A DNA stretch of 21,917 bases from a virus (taxonomy: Duplodnaviria > Heunggongvirae > Uroviricota > Caudoviricetes): positions 1-21,917 of IMG/VR virus record IMGVR_UViG_2751185961_000012. One strand, written 5' to 3'. Under the pieces are notes generated by a model. It did no database searches, was not told the origin of the DNA, and worked only from the letters and a program-made list of their open reading frames with translations. The translations under genes and the position numbers were made by a program. How positions within the stretch are numbered: the first letter of the stretch is position 1; every line of letters starts with the position of its first letter. Below are positions 2,600 to 18,131 of the stretch, piece after piece.

Positions 2600-3112
2600 T
2601 CAGAGGCTTAAGGTGAAGCCTTTTCGGGAATTTCGATCTGACAGTCTTGAAATATCCTGTAGCGTGCGGCGCATTTCTTCCGTCAGATGTTTGAAGGCGT
2701 TAAATTCAGCAACAGCGGCATCGACGTTATAGCCCTTGCTGTGTAGCTCGTTGAGGATGCGCATAGTTGGGCTTGGCATATCGAAGAGCACAGAAACGTC
2801 CAGGTTAAGAGTTTTTCGATCAACATAGCTCATCATGGAGTAGGGGTGATGTTCAGAAAACCACGAGAGAGGGTAGTTGATAGATAGTGTTGATTCTGGA
2901 AGCTGAAGTTGTTCTGGGATTTTTTGACTGAAATAGCAGTCTTCCAGTTTTTCGAACACATCCCACGCTAATTCAGATGTGCGTGTGCATACGACAATAA
3001 AAAACACGCTCGCGGCGTGTGTCTGTCGCGGTTGAATATCCGGGGTCTCAATCCCGACGCCAGATTTTGCTGGCGTGCGGAGAATATAATCCCGGATACG
3101 CGACGTTGTCAA
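2600..3112 (-). CDS. Paralog or remnant of the antirepressor C-terminal domain (C-terminal about 95 aa is near-identical to the C-terminus of the 12096..12734 protein)
   Basis: C-terminal region INYPLSWFSEHHPY...LFDMPSPTMRILNELHSKGYNVDAAVAEFNAFKHLTEEMRR matches 12096..12734; the annotated start is a non-ATG (TTG-type) codon, so this may be truncated or a pseudogene. Confidence 0.45.
   Translation of the reverse strand: MTTSRIRDYILRTPAKSGVGIETPDIQPRQTHAASVFFIVVCTRTSELAWDVFEKLEDCYFSQKIPEQLQLPESTLSINYPLSWFSEHHPYSMMSYVDRKTLNLDVSVLFDMPSPTMRILNELHSKGYNVDAAVAEFNAFKHLTEEMRRTLQDISRLSDRNSRKGFTLSL
2666..2882. repeat. Dispersed direct repeat copy A (about 220 bp, roughly 85-90 percent identical to 12162..12386)
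   Basis: Long runs of identical sequence read by eye, e.g. cggcgcatttcttccgtcagatg...ttgaaggcgttaaattc...ctgtgtagctcgttgaggatgcgcatagttgggcttggcatatcgaagagcac...ccacgagagagggtagttgat. Confidence 0.8.
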
Positions 3113-12734: not shown

Positions 12735-13000
12735 ATTTTATGTCCTTTGCATTTGTTCAGATAGCCCTGTGTTCAGCAGGGCGGCCAGGTACTTGAACAC
12801 CGTGCAAAGTCGGCCCGTATCCTTAACCTTTCGGCTGTTTTTCGGTATACGCGCTACCCGACCATATCTGAAAAATGGACATAAAAAAGCCGCATGACTG
12901 ACGGGTGCGGTCTCCGCTTTGCAAGGTGTGTTCAGCACCATGAGGTGGAATATATCCCCGTCGATGTGGATTTGTCAAGGTTGCTTTGGCAGAAACATGT

Positions 13001-13552
13001 TTACAGCTTTATTCCGCATGCAGTGATAAATTTATTAACAGCACCAGTGGAGCCTAATACATTAAAGCTGAAAGAATATGTCATGGCATCTTCTCGTGTG
13101 ATGTCTTGGCGTCGAATCCCGACCCTCACTCTATGTTTAGCATCTCTGAGTTGCCTGAGTATAATTTTAATTTTCTTCATTTCAGTATCAGTACGTTCAG
13201 TGATAGCTTGTGTTAGCATTGAGTTTCTTCTTGAAAGTGTTGCGTTGAGCCTTATTATACTATTTTTGTCAATTTTTATTGCCATATCTATTGGGAATGA
13301 ATAAATTGGGGCCGATGTTTCTTCTTCTATGTCCTTTTCGACTAATGAGAATGTTAGGGATCTTGGCGTACAATTAAGAGCAATCATGTTATTATCAATC
13401 TCTTCAGGATTTGATGTTTTTTTTCCTACCATCAGCGCCGTGTGACCATCAGAGAACAAATCGTCGTCTGTTACTGTATACCACTCCGCCTGTACTATTG
13501 GTGAAAACAAAATTGTAGCGATAAGAGTTGTCCTGAGTATTTTTCGCATCAT
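13001..13552 (-). CDS. Secreted or periplasmic hypothetical protein with N-terminal signal peptide, 183 aa
   Basis: Classical signal peptide (MMRKILRTTLIATILFSPIVQA then EW); AT-rich gene at the promoter-proximal end of the leftward operon. Confidence 0.6.
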   Translation of the reverse strand: MMRKILRTTLIATILFSPIVQAEWYTVTDDDLFSDGHTALMVGKKTSNPEEIDNNMIALNCTPRSLTFSLVEKDIEEETSAPIYSFPIDMAIKIDKNSIIRLNATLSRRNSMLTQAITERTDTEMKKIKIILRQLRDAKHRVRVGIRRQDITREDAMTYSFSFNVLGSTGAVNKFITACGIKL

Positions 13553-14306
13553 TAAGTTTCCCGTTCAGTTCGACCGACATCCTTCATGAAGTGCTTACAT
13601 AGTCTATTTGATAGCACTACCTACGCGGTAGTATAAAGAAGTCAGTTGAAAACTTGAACATTGTGTTGAAAAAATAACTTTGTGCGGCATAGGTAATCGT
13701 AGAATGATTGTGATTGGTCTTATGGTATCCAATCATTACTTTTGCTACAGGGTTGGGACGGCATCGCTATTTCACGCAACGCTTTGGTGGCACTCTCAGC
13801 ACCCCAAAACATTCCCTGTATTGGTCAGCGCCAACTTCCTGCCAGTGTTGCCCGTTCTCACGCCGTTCTCGCTCTCGCGCGGGGATACTCTCTCATCGAC
13901 CGGATCGCACCCGATGATACAGCACGTTTACGTGTAGGGGTCTAAACAGGTCATTGACGCTGTAAAGCTCCAGATTGTTAAAGAGCATTTTGCGGCGGGT
14001 TAAGTCGCGCCGTACGACTGATTTATGTAGCCCTGTGTAAGGGCGCGATGTTTCTGGCTTGAAATAAATATAACTTGCGGTGATTTTTGTGTAAATACCG
14101 TTGGTGGTTATTGGGGTCAAAAAAATATTACTTAACTGATTTTTAAAGTGATTTATTTTTCAAGGGGGCGGTTAGCGGAGTGCGGTCAAAGAAAAGCCGG
14201 CGCGGGCCGGTTACTCTGTGTGAGATTTGGCGTGAGGGAAAAGCCCCCGGATAACACCAGGAAAAGCAGCGAACAGTCAAAGAGAACCCAGCGGGCTTGG
14301 TGGCTT

Positions 14307-14335
14307 TTGACAAAAACACTGCCTGTAACTATAAT
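14307..14335 (+). promoter_or_regulatory. Consensus sigma70 promoter (TTGACA - 17 nt - TATAAT) upstream of hicA
   Basis: Exact -35 and -10 hexamers with a 17-nt spacer read directly; about 30 nt upstream of the hicA start. Confidence 0.65.
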
Positions 14336-14364
14336 TAGTTGCAATGTAGCGAAGATGAGATTAT

Positions 14365-14619
14365 GTGGGTATGGGGAAAGCAGATAAGCTACTGGAAAAG
14401 TTTTTAAACAGTAAAAAAACGTTTGAATGGGATGAGCTGGTCGTTTTGTTTTCCTCTCTGGGAGATGTCAAAAAGGAAATGCAGGGCTCAAGAGTGCGGT
14501 TTTTCAATGCTGAAATCAACCACACCATATTAATGCATCGCCCACATCCAGAAAGTTATATTAAAGGTGGAACGCTGAAAGCGATTAAACAGAATCTGAA
14601 AGAGGCTGGGGTATTATGA
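14365..14619 (+). CDS. hicA: HicA-family toxin (mRNA interferase-like)
   Basis: HicA-like C-terminal signature (GSRVRF ... HRPHPESYIKGGTLKAIKQNLKEAGVL); ATGA-type overlap with the downstream hicB; start uncertain (GTG at 14365 or ATG at 14371). Confidence 0.7.
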   Translation: MGMGKADKLLEKFLNSKKTFEWDELVVLFSSLGDVKKEMQGSRVRFFNAEINHTILMHRPHPESYIKGGTLKAIKQNLKEAGVL

Positions 14620-14960
14620 AGCATCTAAAATATAAAGGGTATTTAGGTACAGTAGAACCAGATTTTGAAAATAATATCCTGTACGGAAAACTGGCGTTTA
14701 TTCGAGACCTGGTAACTTATGAGGCTTCTACATTAGCTGAACTGGAACAGGAGTTTAAGACATCGGTTGAGCTGTATTTACAGTCTTGTGTGGAGGATGG
14801 AAAGGAGCCTGATACCCCGTTTAAAGGTGTGTTTAACGTCAGGCTTGATCCAGAACTGCATCGTCGGGTAGCAGAAATTGCGATGGAAGAAGATTTATCA
14901 CTGAACGCCTTTGTTAATAAGGCGCTGGAAAAAGAAGTCAACCATCACACAGGGGCTTAA
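14616..14960 (+). CDS. hicB: HicB-family antitoxin with C-terminal ribbon-helix-helix DNA-binding domain
   Basis: N-terminal HicB-like fold signature (KYKGYLGTVEPDFENNILYGKLAFIRDLVTYEASTLAELEQEFK) and C-terminal RHH (RLDPELHRRVAEIAMEEDLSLNAFVNKALEKEV). Confidence 0.75.
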   Translation: MKHLKYKGYLGTVEPDFENNILYGKLAFIRDLVTYEASTLAELEQEFKTSVELYLQSCVEDGKEPDTPFKGVFNVRLDPELHRRVAEIAMEEDLSLNAFVNKALEKEVNHHTGA

Positions 14961-15045
14961 TGTTCCCTTCGTCTTTGACATCCTCACCGCCACGAAGAAT
15001 GGGGAATTTACGGCGCACTGGTAAATGGTGGGGCGAGCAGGAGGC

Positions 15046-15078
15046 AAACAAAACCCGGCACCAAGGCCGGGTTTTGTT
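15046..15078 (+). terminator. Intrinsic terminator downstream of hicB (AAAACCCGGC-ACCAAG-GCCGGGTTTT), probably bidirectional
   Basis: Perfect 10-bp stem followed by TTTTGTTATT on the plus strand; A-run upstream gives a U-run on the minus strand too; sits between the convergent hicAB and peptidase genes. Confidence 0.65.
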
Positions 15079-15247
15079 ATTGGTGCATTTGGCAGGTTGT
15101 AATATCTGGTCCATAAGCCAAAGTAAAAACAGGCTTGTTGATCAAGCCCCTGTTCTTTAATGATTGAATCATTTTTCCTTGCTCGCTAACTTTTTGCTTG
15201 CTAAGTATTTCTTCCACTTGTTGTGTCAGGGATTTGTCTTTGTTCAT

Positions 15248-16159
15248 TTATGACTCACTTTGTTCTGGAAAAGGGAAAGAAGACAGAACAAGAACCTGTC
15301 GATTTGTTTTATACATGTATTCATTAATGACGTTATGTATATTTTTTAACGCCATGCTAAAATCTTTATCGTATGTAAAGTCTTCTACTTTTATCCTTAA
15401 GTCATTGATAAGAGTGTTTATTCCTATCGTTCTTCCGTGAGAATGCCACTTTCCGTTGTCACTAAGAGCGGTAGCGATCATTTTAGCCCTCGCTTCCTTT
15501 TCCCTCTTGGTAACTAGCTTTCCTCGTTTTGTGTTACCCTGATGAACTGTCCACTCTCTAAATTTATACTCCACAAGCCATTTCTTAAGCAAGTCTATTG
15601 ATAGTTCTCTGGCTTGCTCATATCTCCGCAAGTGCGCCAGATCTAACTGACTAAGCATCATCAGTTCAGCTTGGGTAATGGTTCCTTCTCTGGATTTATT
15701 AATCATTTCTTCAACTTTATCAAGGTATCCCAAAGCGGGAACCCATTTACCGTCCGACGATTGCACTTGAGGATCAATAGGTCCTAATGAAGAAGCATAG
15801 TCCATGTAAATTTTATCTCCAGACATGCACCATATTGTACCTGCCGACATAGCCATGTCTGGAATGATAAAATATACCTCTTGGTAGAAATGCCTTGTAA
15901 TTTCTACCATTTTTTCTACAGACTCAACAGAACCACCGTTTGTATTGAGTATAATAACAAGAAATTTATTGGTACGACTGTTAGCCATCTCACCAATAGC
16001 TTCAAGTTTTGGCTGGTAAACTTCTTTTGACCATGGAAAGATGCCACCGTAGTACGCAATGACGTCACAGTTTGGGAAAAATTTATCCTTAAATTGCTCT
16101 AACTGCCAAGAGATGTATGTTTCTAGTGTTGAATCAAGATTTTGGCTCATTTGATACAA
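15248..16159 (-). CDS. ClpP/SppA-fold serine peptidase-like protein (SDH/S49-like) with helical C-terminal extension, 303 aa
   Basis: Motif blocks typical of the ClpP/crotonase-fold peptidases (IILNTNGGSVESV; IIPDMAMSAGTIWCMSGDKIYMDYASSLGPIDPQ, candidate nucleophile Ser in MSAG); AT-rich; located in the repressor-adjacent slot. Confidence 0.65.
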   Translation of the reverse strand: MYQMSQNLDSTLETYISWQLEQFKDKFFPNCDVIAYYGGIFPWSKEVYQPKLEAIGEMANSRTNKFLVIILNTNGGSVESVEKMVEITRHFYQEVYFIIPDMAMSAGTIWCMSGDKIYMDYASSLGPIDPQVQSSDGKWVPALGYLDKVEEMINKSREGTITQAELMMLSQLDLAHLRRYEQARELSIDLLKKWLVEYKFREWTVHQGNTKRGKLVTKREKEARAKMIATALSDNGKWHSHGRTIGINTLINDLRIKVEDFTYDKDFSMALKNIHNVINEYMYKTNRQVLVLSSFPFPEQSES

Positions 16160-16224
16160 TACCTTGTTATATTAACAATTTACTATAAGATGTTGCACCA
16201 TAGTTTTCGTTAATCACAACTAAA

Positions 16225-16246
16225 ATCACCCAAACATCACCCAAAC
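16225..16246. repeat. Tandem direct repeat, 2 x 11 bp (ATCACCCAAAC), with a third ATCAC about 13 bp upstream
   Basis: Read directly; lies 65-90 bp upstream of the peptidase start codon (minus strand), a plausible regulator-binding or promoter element. Confidence 0.6.
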
Positions 16247-16298
16247 GTCTCTTCAGGTTACTAGTTAACAACAGGCCAAAAATTCTGTCTGAACGTAT

Positions 16299-16324
16299 TG
16301 AAATAAAGGCCGGGAAAGCGGCCT
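16299..16324 (-). terminator. Hairpin terminator (AGGCCG-GGAAAG-CGGCCT) flanked by T/A runs, possibly bidirectional
   Basis: 6-bp GC stem read directly; immediately downstream of the stop of the small signal-peptide ORF; T-run on the plus side (TGTTTTT) and TTTATTTC on the minus side. Confidence 0.45.
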
Positions 16325-16329
16325 TGTTT

Positions 16330-16491
16330 TTAGCGAATACCACCACCGCCAGGACGAGAATCAGCAGAACGACCACCACAACGAGAGCCGTCAGCAGCGG
16401 TATCATTGTCGTGTTGGCAACGACCAGCGAATGATTGAGTCGAAGCTACCAGTGACAACAAAACGAACAATACAGCAAATGATTTTTTCAT
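16330..16491 (-). CDS. Small predicted secreted peptide, about 53 aa (signal peptide plus Gly/Cys-containing 30-aa mature part)
   Basis: Internal ATG of ORF 16330..16563 gives MKKSFAVLFVLLSLVASTQSFA then GRCQHD..., a canonical signal peptide; weak Shine-Dalgarno; same strand as cI and directly downstream of it. Confidence 0.4.
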   Translation of the reverse strand: MKKSFAVLFVLLSLVASTQSFAGRCQHDNDTAADGSRCGGRSADSRPGGGGIR

Positions 16492-16587
16492 GTAAGACTC
16501 TATAGGTTGTGGGCAACTCAGATAATAATGCCAGAAAATCGCTTCCCAAGCATCTCCCGGCAAGGTTATTAATATCGCTCTGTGAGC

Positions 16588-17301
16588 TCAATCAAAAGTA
16601 TCATCATTCCACTGCGATTTGATGACCTTTCCGACAAACTGGCAGTTTTCGTTACACTCAATCATGTCGAATCGTGGGTTGAGCGGCTCCAGGTACGCTT
16701 TACCGCTCTCACGAATGAATCGTTTGAAGGTGAATTCATCGCCGTTCATTCGGGCCACGCAAAAATCGCCATCCTCGATTTCCCGTTCAGGGTCAACGAG
16801 TATCAGCATACCTTCAGGGAAGCTGGGTTTACCTCCCTGTGGCGCGGTCATTGAATGCCCCTTAACTTCCAGCCAGAACGACCTGTTACTGGCTTTTGTG
16901 GTGGTGGAGATCCACTTAATCGCATCCTTTGCGGTGTACGAAATATCATCCATTGTGAATGCGCCAGCCTGTACGCAGGAGAGTAACGGATATTCGTAAG
17001 CAGGGACACGAGTTAATGGCTCTTCAATCGCGAGCGCCATTTCTGCAATAGATTTTGCCAAGCTGGGGCTGAAATCTCCGACCTTTACATTCAGTAACTT
17101 AGCAAGCTGCGCTGCGTGACTGGCATTTATGGCGTTGATGCCAGCCATTAGCTGATTAACGGCACTTTGGGTAACACCTAGTTCATAGGCTAATGACTCC
17201 TGTGACAAGCCTAACTCTTTCTTTTTAGCGATGAAAATGCTTTTAAGACGCTTGGCGTCTTCCAGTTGCTCAGGGGTTAACGGTTTCTTTTTCATGTTCA
17301 T
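16588..17301 (-). CDS. cI: Lambda-type CI repressor (N-terminal HTH, C-terminal S24/LexA-like autocleavage domain)
   Basis: 237 aa, collinear with lambda CI as recalled ([17 protein letters not shown] ... LGLSQESLA ... [31 protein letters not shown] ... [19 protein letters not shown] ... LEPLNP); divergent from cro. Confidence 0.9.
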
Positions 17302-17396
17302 ACCATATCACCTTTGGTTATATGTAATGAAATATCTGCGGTGTTGACACTTTAATAACTGTGCGTAATGATATGGGCATTTTGAAGGAGTCAGTT
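17302..17396. promoter_or_regulatory. cI-cro intergenic switch region: operator-like sites, rightward promoter and Shine-Dalgarno for cro
   Basis: Lambda-like operator half-sites (TATCACC in TATCACCTTTGGTTATA; CTGCGGTG resembling lambda CTGGCGGTG); perfect -35 TTGACA at about 17344-17349 with a weaker -10 (AATGAT/TAATGA) 16-17 nt downstream; AAGGAG at 17385-17390. Confidence 0.6.
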
Positions 17397-17600
17397 ATGG
17401 CGATGAAAAAAGAGACCCTGGCTGATTACGTATACAGGTTCGGTCAGAAGAAAGCCGCTAAGGACTTTGGTGTGGCGCAGAGCGCGATCAGTAAAGCGCT
17501 TCTTGTCGGACGTGAAATTTACGTCAAAACCTTTGATGACGGCAGAGTTGAGGCGGAAGAGGTTCGACCGTTCCCTGCGTTCGTAAGAGGCGATGATTAA
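17397..17600 (+). CDS. cro: Cro-like repressor
   Basis: About 67 aa with lambda Cro-like blocks ([28 protein letters not shown] ... [12 protein letters not shown]); AAGGAG Shine-Dalgarno 6 nt upstream of ATG at 17397. Confidence 0.75.
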
Positions 17601-17630
17601 TCCTGGACACACAGCCCATCGGAGGTGTGA

Positions 17631-17924
17631 GTGAACAGGCAAATCAAAACGGTTATGCCCGATCAGTACAGCGATGCTGATCGGGACTGGATACAGGAGC
17701 AATTGTTACAGCTAGACCCGACCACCAGGGTAAAAATTGCAGCAGAGTACGCGAGAGTGTACCAGGAAGAGTGGGACAAGGAGCCTGTATCGTTCAGGAA
17801 GGGCAACAGGGCAAGACGGAGCGCCAACACCCGGTTACGGGTGTATGTCCAGAAGTACGCGAGAGCCAGCCGTGGCTGGATGCTTTCGCCAGTAGCGGTA
17901 CGGAAGTTTCCCCCGACACCATGA
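17631..17924 (+). CDS. Hypothetical basic protein in the cII-equivalent position, 97 aa
   Basis: GTG start with GGAGG Shine-Dalgarno 5 nt upstream; Arg-rich C-terminus; no similarity to lambda CII recognised. Confidence 0.5.
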   Translation: MNRQIKTVMPDQYSDADRDWIQEQLLQLDPTTRVKIAAEYARVYQEEWDKEPVSFRKGNRARRSANTRLRVYVQKYARASRGWMLSPVAVRKFPPTP

Positions 17925-18131
17925 TGGCGGTTAGTTGTGCTAGAAATAATTTCACATGCAACTAATTTCCTGAAAGGAAGCGAGGAGGGGGTAAGGGGGT
18001 GGAGTCGTTGGTAAGGCCTGTATCCCTTGGCCTAGGCCAGAAGGCAGGTACATAGGTTAGGTAGATCACTGTATAAGCGCGCGATAGTTTCTGGTGAAAT
18101 AATTATCGAGCTAACTATTGAGTGATAAACT

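Follow-up and report, generated by a model that had tools for sequence, protein, structure and literature searches.

Organization of the locus

The DNA analysed here (hereafter, the window) comprises the 21,917 nucleotides (nt) of IMG/VR virus record IMGVR_UViG_2751185961_000012 (Caudoviricetes). A first-pass annotation, made from the sequence and its open reading frames (ORFs), had placed a gene for a ClpP/SppA-fold serine peptidase directly downstream of the cI repressor gene on the same strand and had proposed for it an undescribed exclusion or defence function. The ORF was seen as described (15248..16159, minus strand), and it proved to be the first gene of a mobile two-gene operon, whose second gene encodes a 56-aa protein, hereafter the partner (Table 1). 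The AT-rich composition noted for this region was evident from a G+C content of about 0.40 over 15001..16500, compared with 0.45-0.53 in the flanks. The cI gene is the upstream gene of the slot that holds the operon and lies outside the mobile cassette; the same cI is shared with Stx2a phages and sibling prophages. Copies of the cassette in the E. coli lambda-like prophages L002 and L004 were used for comparison.

Table 1. Features between the cI repressor gene and the hicAB genes of the window
Feature	Position	Strand	Details
cI repressor	16588..17301	-	237 aa; Pfam HTH_3 E = 7e-10, Peptidase_S24 E = 1.5e-28
Promoter-like site TTGGGA-16-TATTAT	16522..16549	-	Promoter scan; 5' of the small ORF
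Small signal-peptide/membrane-anchored ORF	16330..16491	-	53 aa; phrog_14503 E = 9e-38
GC-rich hairpin, AAGGCCGCTTTCCCGGCCTT then TTATTT (T-rich tract)	about 16296..16325	-	7-bp stem; folding
Fossil 3' end of a lambda-type cI, ...CCTGAAGAGACGTTTGGGTGA (PEETFG-stop)	16237..16272	-	Alignment with L002/L004
Exact 11-bp tandem repeat, ATCACCCAAAC x2 (GTTTGGGTGAT x2 on the minus strand)	16225..16246	-	
AT-rich cassette leader	16151..16224	-	Conserved with L002-type copies
SDH-type ClpP-fold serine protease	15248..16150	-	300 aa; ATG start
Partner ORF	15077..15247	-	56 aa; phrog_28875 E = 5e-31
Intrinsic terminator, ACAAAACCCGGC-CTTGGT-GCCGGGTTTTGTTTG	15045..15076	-	Stem -21 kcal/mol, then T-run
HicA/HicB toxin-antitoxin pair	14365..14960	+	Pfam; converges on the protease operon

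Fold and candidate catalytic residues of the protease

Although the 303-aa ORF of the first-pass annotation is present, a 300-aa product starting at the ATG at 16150 was better supported by the RefSeq annotation of a 100%-identical copy and by the N-termini of homologues. The protein passed the gathering cut-off of Pfam PF01972 (SDH_protease; 44.1 bits against 31.3, E = 1.7e-11), the match being limited to profile positions 92-216 of 286 (residues 65-202) and the C-terminal third being divergent. This was the one success among the profile searches proposed with the original prediction: scores were under the cut-offs for the ClpP family PF00574 (CLP_protease, MEROPS S14; 18.3 bits, gathering cut-off 20.2) and for the SppA domain TIGR00706 (20.4 bits, cut-off 155). 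The NCBIfam equivalog NF047768 (Clp_like_SDH) scored 57 bits over residues 63-151 only, under a curated cut-off of 250, and NfeD1b_N likewise fell under its family cut-off in the profile search. The RefSeq product name is 'SDH family Clp fold serine proteinase', and the protein was assigned to phrog_11747 of the PHROGs database, a group with no assigned function.

Structural prediction yielded a confident ClpP/SppA fold, to which SppA, ClpP and the NfeD 1510-N protease were the closest folds; a sequence search found no solved structure of the family. The serine of the MSAG motif, Ser102 (codon 15845..15847), aligned with the SppA nucleophile in a phmmer comparison and was invariant among 46 sequences at 28-50% identity, so that both the fold and the nucleophile predicted earlier held. 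In the same alignment, Asp126 (LGPIDPQ; codon 15773..15775) and His238 (WHSHGR; codon 15437..15439) were conserved in at least 90% of sequences, and all three residues were invariant or near-invariant in 36 closer sequences. No lysine reached 90% conservation in the wider alignment, K145, K196 and K218 being variable. Judging from this conservation pattern, Ser102, Asp126 and His238 probably form the catalytic triad. Of the Ser/Lys or Ser/His dyad proposed at first, the serine and the histidine are thus conserved and the lysine is not. The order Ser, Asp, His fits that of the SDH_protease family, whose name refers to this arrangement of catalytic residues.

The C-terminal 120 residues are helical, as had been described, and carry the invariant or near-invariant WHSHGR motif. 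Because His238 lies in this C-terminal third, the helical segment appears to belong to the catalytic unit rather than to be the mere extension for which it was taken. The protease sequence contained neither a signal peptide nor a membrane segment.

A conserved small partner directly downstream

The protein had been said to have no partner next to it, which does not hold, since the start codon of the conserved partner ORF directly abuts the protease stop codon. We collected 94 protease loci from individual genome look-ups and a species-wide genome scan. In 84 of them, a hidden Markov model built from the partners detected a homologue immediately 3' of the protease gene, and most of the remaining 10 had an ORF of the same size at this position. 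The scan took in Bacteroidota, Acidobacteriota, Gemmatimonadota, Spirochaetota, Planctomycetota, Elusimicrobia and others. The small downstream ORFs of E. coli, Klebsiella, Pectobacterium, Pasteurella, Shewanella and a Methylophilus metagenome-assembled genome followed a common pattern.

This pattern consists of two short helices followed by a conserved tail, GLINKPVFTLAYGP in the window, that is predicted to be disordered. In the AlphaFold2 model the helices span residues 7-17 and 22-32, and the predicted local distance difference test score of the tail is about 50. The general consensus of the tail is G-[LI]-[IV]-x-K-P-x-[YF]-x-L-[AP]..., with ...LAYGP in Enterobacterales and ...LPxxDTIGR elsewhere. 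Conservation of a segment predicted to be disordered is the pattern expected of one that folds on a binding partner, and the protease may be the protein that it contacts. No Pfam domain or name was found among 42 database relatives of the partner; a partial match to the DNA-binding domain Arg_repressor of Pfam was sub-threshold (E = 0.006). In a comparison with the 93.7%-identical allele of L002, the protease and the partner of the window had ratios of nonsynonymous to synonymous substitution rates of 0.043 and 0.21, respectively, and both genes are under purifying selection.

At a locus of E. coli strain 48 (L003 5078-5248), an intact partner, 98% identical to that of the window, lies alone 121 nt behind cI. 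The locus has neither the protease nor the small membrane ORF, and only about 18 nt 5' of the partner ATG resemble the 3' end of the protease gene.

Borders of the mobile cassette and origin of the tandem repeat

The pair was found at 92-94% identity in 12 other E. coli genomes, in lambda-like prophages and directly between cI and N. At the right end, homology of the window with these copies begins at ...CCTGAAGAGACGTTTGGGT(A/G)A. In L002/L004 the same sequence is the end of an intact cI (..VIASQWPEETFG-stop), 72 nt upstream of the protease ATG. Since homology begins at the end of a foreign cI, the window carries the fossil 3' end of a foreign lambda-type cI. Homology with L002 stops at about 15041, just past the operon terminator, which forms the left end of the cassette. 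An equivalent CCCGGCC...GCCGGG+T terminator lies 3' of the partner in the E. coli, Klebsiella, Enterobacter and Cronobacter copies, and the Pasteurella copy has a different GC-rich hairpin with a T-run after the partner. These borders, the terminator of its own and the fossil cI end show that the protease and its partner move together, as one operon that spans roughly 1.2 kb (15041..16272). From the alignment, the cassette apparently came from a lambda-type immunity region, dragging the last cI codons along.

The exact 11-bp tandem repeat had been reported correctly, but the repressor-type control proposed for it was not upheld. It repeats the final cI codons, T-F-G-stop, in tandem, and its unit is single-copy in the L002/L004 cassettes, which makes the duplication lineage-specific. 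No copy with two or fewer mismatches occurs in the cI-cro region (17302..17396), and this region has no 9-mers in common with the presumed OL region. A role as repressor operator was rejected because the cI-cro region lacks the repeat, which consists of fossil cI coding sequence and is single-copy elsewhere. The repeat is a slippage or recombination scar, and its resemblance to the lambda half-site is incidental.

The small membrane ORF and transcription of the pair

The small signal-peptide ORF predicted between cI and the cassette was supported by its assignment to phrog_14503 ('membrane associated protein') and by the RefSeq annotation as a 'transmembrane anchored protein'; the predicted terminator 3' of it was recovered as a hairpin followed by a T-rich tract. 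The ORF is missing from the L002/L004 cassette copies and is unlinked to the protease in other genomes. With a promoter-like site and a hairpin of its own, it seems to be a self-contained moron inserted between cI and the cassette, the hairpin being a terminator-like element that closes it. Its 53-aa product is Gly/Arg-rich with two Cys residues. In another E. coli genome (H46), the small ORF also lies behind cI, with no protease.

In the cI-to-protease spacers that we folded from prophages L002, L008, L014, L097/L099 and L100, no GC-rich hairpin with a T-run was found. Without a terminator in this spacer, the protease is likely to be co-transcribed with the repressor in L002, L014 and L097.

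A variable cargo site behind phage repressors

In prophages of Enterobacterales and Pasteurellaceae, the pair was found directly after repressors of at least nine kinds, always on the same strand as the repressor. The hosts included E. coli (two immunity types), Cronobacter, Pasteurella, Gallibacterium and one genome labelled Martelella. In Klebsiella the pair follows a Rac-type helix-turn-helix (HTH) repressor, and in Enterobacter an identical protease stands behind two repressors, of 219 aa and 236 aa. The gene order of an Edwardsiella prophage is cI-pair-N; this and the same placement in the E. coli lambda-like prophages agree with the rexAB-equivalent position assigned at first.

The viral contigs of IMG/VR gave a similar picture. 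Relatives were encoded on 96 contigs, of which 80 loci were fetched, and in 30 of these 80 a 200-370-aa protein with the S24 motif G-x-S-M was encoded directly upstream. Among the 30 loci with at least 59% identity, an S24-type protein was upstream in 21, a 126-155-aa ORF occupied the place of the Klebsiella HTH repressor in seven, and two had the arrangement of the window.

Essentially the same cI and backbone carry other cargo in sibling prophages. In E. coli 2012EL-2448 (L107 14947-17366) and in the O104:H4 Stx2a phage P13374 (L108 1001-3420), a type II restriction-modification (R-M) system composed of an Eco57I-like methylase and a BsuBI/PstI-type endonuclease directly follows cI and replaces the small ORF, the protease pair and HicAB of the window. 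The slot is a variable repressor-proximal cargo site of temperate phages. The prophages of 2012EL-2448 and P13374 share both cI and the replication module with the window. In the window, HicAB stands beside the protease pair, so that the slot carries three separate cargo units.

The pair was also found elsewhere, behind the tail genes in one Pectobacterium prophage and beside an integrase. The Pectobacterium pair (L103/L104 9001-14358) immediately precedes a gene for a 1373-aa protein with a MuF_C domain. In the Edwardsiella prophage (L105 10480-14181), a gene for a 1233-aa protein with a reverse-transcriptase domain (RVT_1) lies just beyond N, beside the cI-protease slot. The gene shares this early-left cargo region and may encode a defence-associated reverse transcriptase.

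Distribution across genomes

The pair is rare, being present in 17 of 5426 complete E. coli genomes; distant blastn searches of E. coli with the Pectobacterium and Klebsiella genes returned the same 17 genomes and no other subfamilies. Among 50,697 phage records, the best match in isolated phages was 26-31% identical. The genome scan of 185,579 species genomes found 541 stretches encoding relatives, and 184 clusters (50% identity) had E <= 1e-30. In phyla other than Proteobacteria, the pair mostly stands as an isolated islet.

Other features of the window

The window has a mosaic structure, and at most 76% of it is covered by any one complete E. coli genome. Strain UCPROB-001, which has a 100%-identical cassette, is colinear with it only over about 13799..18118, so that beyond the cassette region the RefSeq features of this strain are no guide to the window.

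Two Rfam matches exceeded the gathering score, the Hfq-binding small RNA isrK (2999-3076, minus strand; 73.6 bits) and sRNA-Xcc1 (12775-12863, minus strand; 65.9 bits), both mapping to the early-left part of the prophage. A 183-aa signal-peptide ORF (13001-13552, minus strand) belongs to phrog_19473, which has no assigned function; its weak PADLOC match to Csx23 (E = 1.6e-4 over 39 residues) is probably due to chance. The segment 13600-14365, of about 760 bp, has a strong G-over-C skew (0.31 over 14001..14500), and an N-type antiterminator and OL/pL are expected there. It had no Rfam match and no 9-mers in common with the cI-cro region, and no search was aimed at an N homologue.

Interpretation

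We interpret the mobile protease-partner operon, with about even confidence, as repressor-slot cargo that most likely serves as a lysogen-expressed exclusion or abortive infection module, of the kind that DefenseFinder lists as FS_HP_SDH_sah. The nominal architecture of that system was found in the window, where a PF01972 protease and an abutting hypothetical protein of 56 aa form one operon, and the pair is probably related to a catalogued defence system. Together with the RefSeq name of the protease, the DefenseFinder entry makes it doubtful that the function is undescribed, as had been claimed. FS_HP_SDH_sah was reportedly defined by Fillol-Salom and colleagues in 2022, among immune systems encoded by phage-inducible chromosomal islands, and is said to have been validated by plaque assays. 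To our knowledge, no mechanism has been published for it. Beyond this system name, our literature search on the protease family in phage biology found nothing relevant.

In such a module, the partner would dock its conserved disordered tail onto the protease and serve either as a sacrificial substrate or as an inhibitor of the pseudo-substrate type. A signal of infection would remove or outcompete the partner, and the freed protease would cleave a highly conserved cellular or phage protein, whereupon phage production would stop.

Some support for a defence role comes from the repressor-proximal slot, where R-M is the alternative cargo behind the same cI and HicAB is a neighbour, and from one copy that lies among PIN/MazE/Fic toxin-antitoxin genes. 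Several observations weigh against this interpretation. The protease, the partner and the small membrane ORF had no match at E <= 0.1 in PADLOC-DB v2, which includes RexAB and the PD-, PDC- and Abi families; the comparison with this catalogue had been suggested at the outset, and its outcome agrees with the initial view that the protein belongs to no named system there. Membership in FS_HP_SDH_sah is putative, being judged from architecture, and the candidate catalytic base was chosen from residue conservation. In three E. coli genomes of the window's prophage type, an orphan partner stands behind cI with no protease. In the window itself, a terminator-like hairpin separates cI from the protease, and no consensus-grade sigma-70 promoter was found in the leader (16151..16224) at the scan threshold. 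With a hairpin upstream and no good promoter, the window copy may be poorly expressed, which makes its expression in a lysogen uncertain. The E. coli and Bacteroidota copies are about 50% identical, unusually conservative for a defence gene. Finally, we examined the 148 nearest flanking proteins from 80 diverse genomes with Pfam and PADLOC and, in a count taken without a background rate, saw no enrichment of defence genes, the neighbours being mostly housekeeping proteins with scattered PADLOC matches.

A more specific proposal, which we put forward tentatively, is that the pair constitutes a distinct protease-based conflict module, whether or not it is FS_HP_SDH_sah. Here, a partner of about 60 residues would gate a self-compartmentalising ClpP-fold protease with a Ser-Asp-His triad through its conserved disordered tail, and the target would be a universally conserved cellular protein. 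Such a target would explain both the identity of about 50% between E. coli and Bacteroidota and the spread over hundreds of species in more than 10 phyla. Temperate phages of Enterobacterales would then have recruited the module into the repressor operon.

Some of the same observations have a reading outside phage defence. The pair could be an addiction module akin to toxin-antitoxin (TA) systems, in which one gene is toxic and the other neutralises it, so that loss kills the cell and the prophage is stabilised. Two small abutting genes with their own terminator, high mobility and occurrence as isolated islets among housekeeping genes in many phyla would suit such a module; one copy is embedded among PIN/MazE/Fic TA genes, the partner stands alone in three genomes as orphan antitoxins do, and the prophage already collects TA pairs, with HicAB next door. 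We nevertheless judge this unlikely. Neither protein matched a known TA family in Pfam, NCBIfam or PADLOC; the protease comes first and the partner second, and the match of the latter to a DNA-binding domain is the partial, sub-threshold one to Arg_repressor. The strong preference for a repressor slot that otherwise holds R-M genes fits a gene of benefit to the lysogen better. TA and abortive-infection roles can, moreover, coexist.

The recurrence of the pair directly after S24-type and short HTH-type repressors in several genera raises the question of whether the protease is instead coupled to the repressor switch, processing the repressor, its fragments or a factor of the CII or antirepressor type and thereby tuning induction or lysogeny, as in ImmA-ImmR. 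This is quite improbable. The same protein stands behind different repressor alleles and families, as with the two Enterobacter repressors, and most of the adjoining repressors already have an S24 autoprotease domain of their own. Most copies in the species-wide scan are far from any repressor, S24 being carried by four of the 148 nearest neighbours, the Pectobacterium pair sits after prophage tail genes, and sibling prophages with the same cI manage without the pair.

SppA acts on signal peptides and NfeD on stomatin, and NfeD proteases are encoded beside their stomatin substrate. By analogy with this gene adjacency, and given that SppA, ClpP and the NfeD 1510-N protease are the closest folds and that the family combines high conservation across phyla with housekeeping neighbourhoods, the protease could be a moron of host physiology, a peptidase of the housekeeping type that cuts host proteins or peptides and has the partner as its dedicated substrate and no relation to phage conflict. 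We consider this very unlikely, because the protease has no signal peptide or membrane segment, unlike SppA and NfeD, because its distribution is patchy (17 of 5426 E. coli genomes, 541 stretches among 185,579 species genomes) and because it is clearly mobile by horizontal transfer, all of which ill suits a core physiological role.

If the preferred interpretation of the pair as a phage-excluding module is right, bacterial immunity, for which few protease effectors are listed, would gain a soluble ClpP-fold serine protease, and the regulatory partner of this effector would be defined, very small and readily dissected by genetics. The different cargo behind the same cI, namely R-M in the O104:H4 Stx2a phage, the protease pair in the window and only the orphan partner in a third strain, provides a natural comparison, and the strong cross-phylum conservation suggests a conserved target, possibly of general interest. 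Should the pair prove to be FS_HP_SDH_sah, the value would be smaller, though still real: the system would be mapped to a prophage repressor operon, with its second gene universally linked.

Comparison with known systems

The closest likeness is to FS_HP_SDH_sah, which reportedly combines an SDH_sah/SDH_protease (PF01972) protein with an adjacent hypothetical protein on a mobile element that rides on temperate phages. It differs in having been reported on phage-inducible chromosomal islands, whereas the pair described here occupies a repressor-proximal slot of a prophage. Tail assembly inhibition (Tai) was considered as an identity of the pair and rejected; according to its authors, neither DefenseFinder nor PADLOC recognised Tai (PMC11364771), and its place in the phage genome is a different one.

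In placement, the pair resembles lambda rexAB. It shares the genomic position and the strand of these genes, and in the L002/L004 and Edwardsiella prophages it stands between cI and N and no terminator follows cI, as with rexAB. BstA of BTP1 and the R-M system of P13374 are likewise repressor-proximal, the latter in the exact slot behind the same cI. However, there is no relation in sequence or fold to these systems, in line with the lack of a PADLOC match; rexAB is a pair of membrane ion channel and sensor and R-M a nuclease, whereas the effector here would be a soluble serine protease.

Among proteases of related fold, ClpP has its catalytic residues in the order Ser-His-Asp, in contrast to the Ser-Asp-His order seen here with the His in the C-terminal WHSHGR motif. 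For SppA a Ser-Lys dyad is expected, whereas the protease of the window has no conserved lysine and scores under the SppA cut-off, and it lacks the membrane anchor of both SppA and NfeD.

Two other protease systems offer functional parallels. Lit of prophage e14 is a prophage-borne protease that stops phage growth by cutting a conserved cellular protein (EF-Tu), as is proposed here for the pair; unlike the latter, it is a zinc metalloprotease that is encoded by one gene and responds to the Gol peptide of T4, and it has neither homology with the protease of the window nor a partner gene. In ImmR-ImmA of ICEBs1, the protease gene lies immediately 3' of the element's repressor in the same operon. 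ImmA, however, is a metalloprotease dedicated to its own repressor, whereas the protease-partner pair is interchangeable behind many repressors and mostly occurs free of any.

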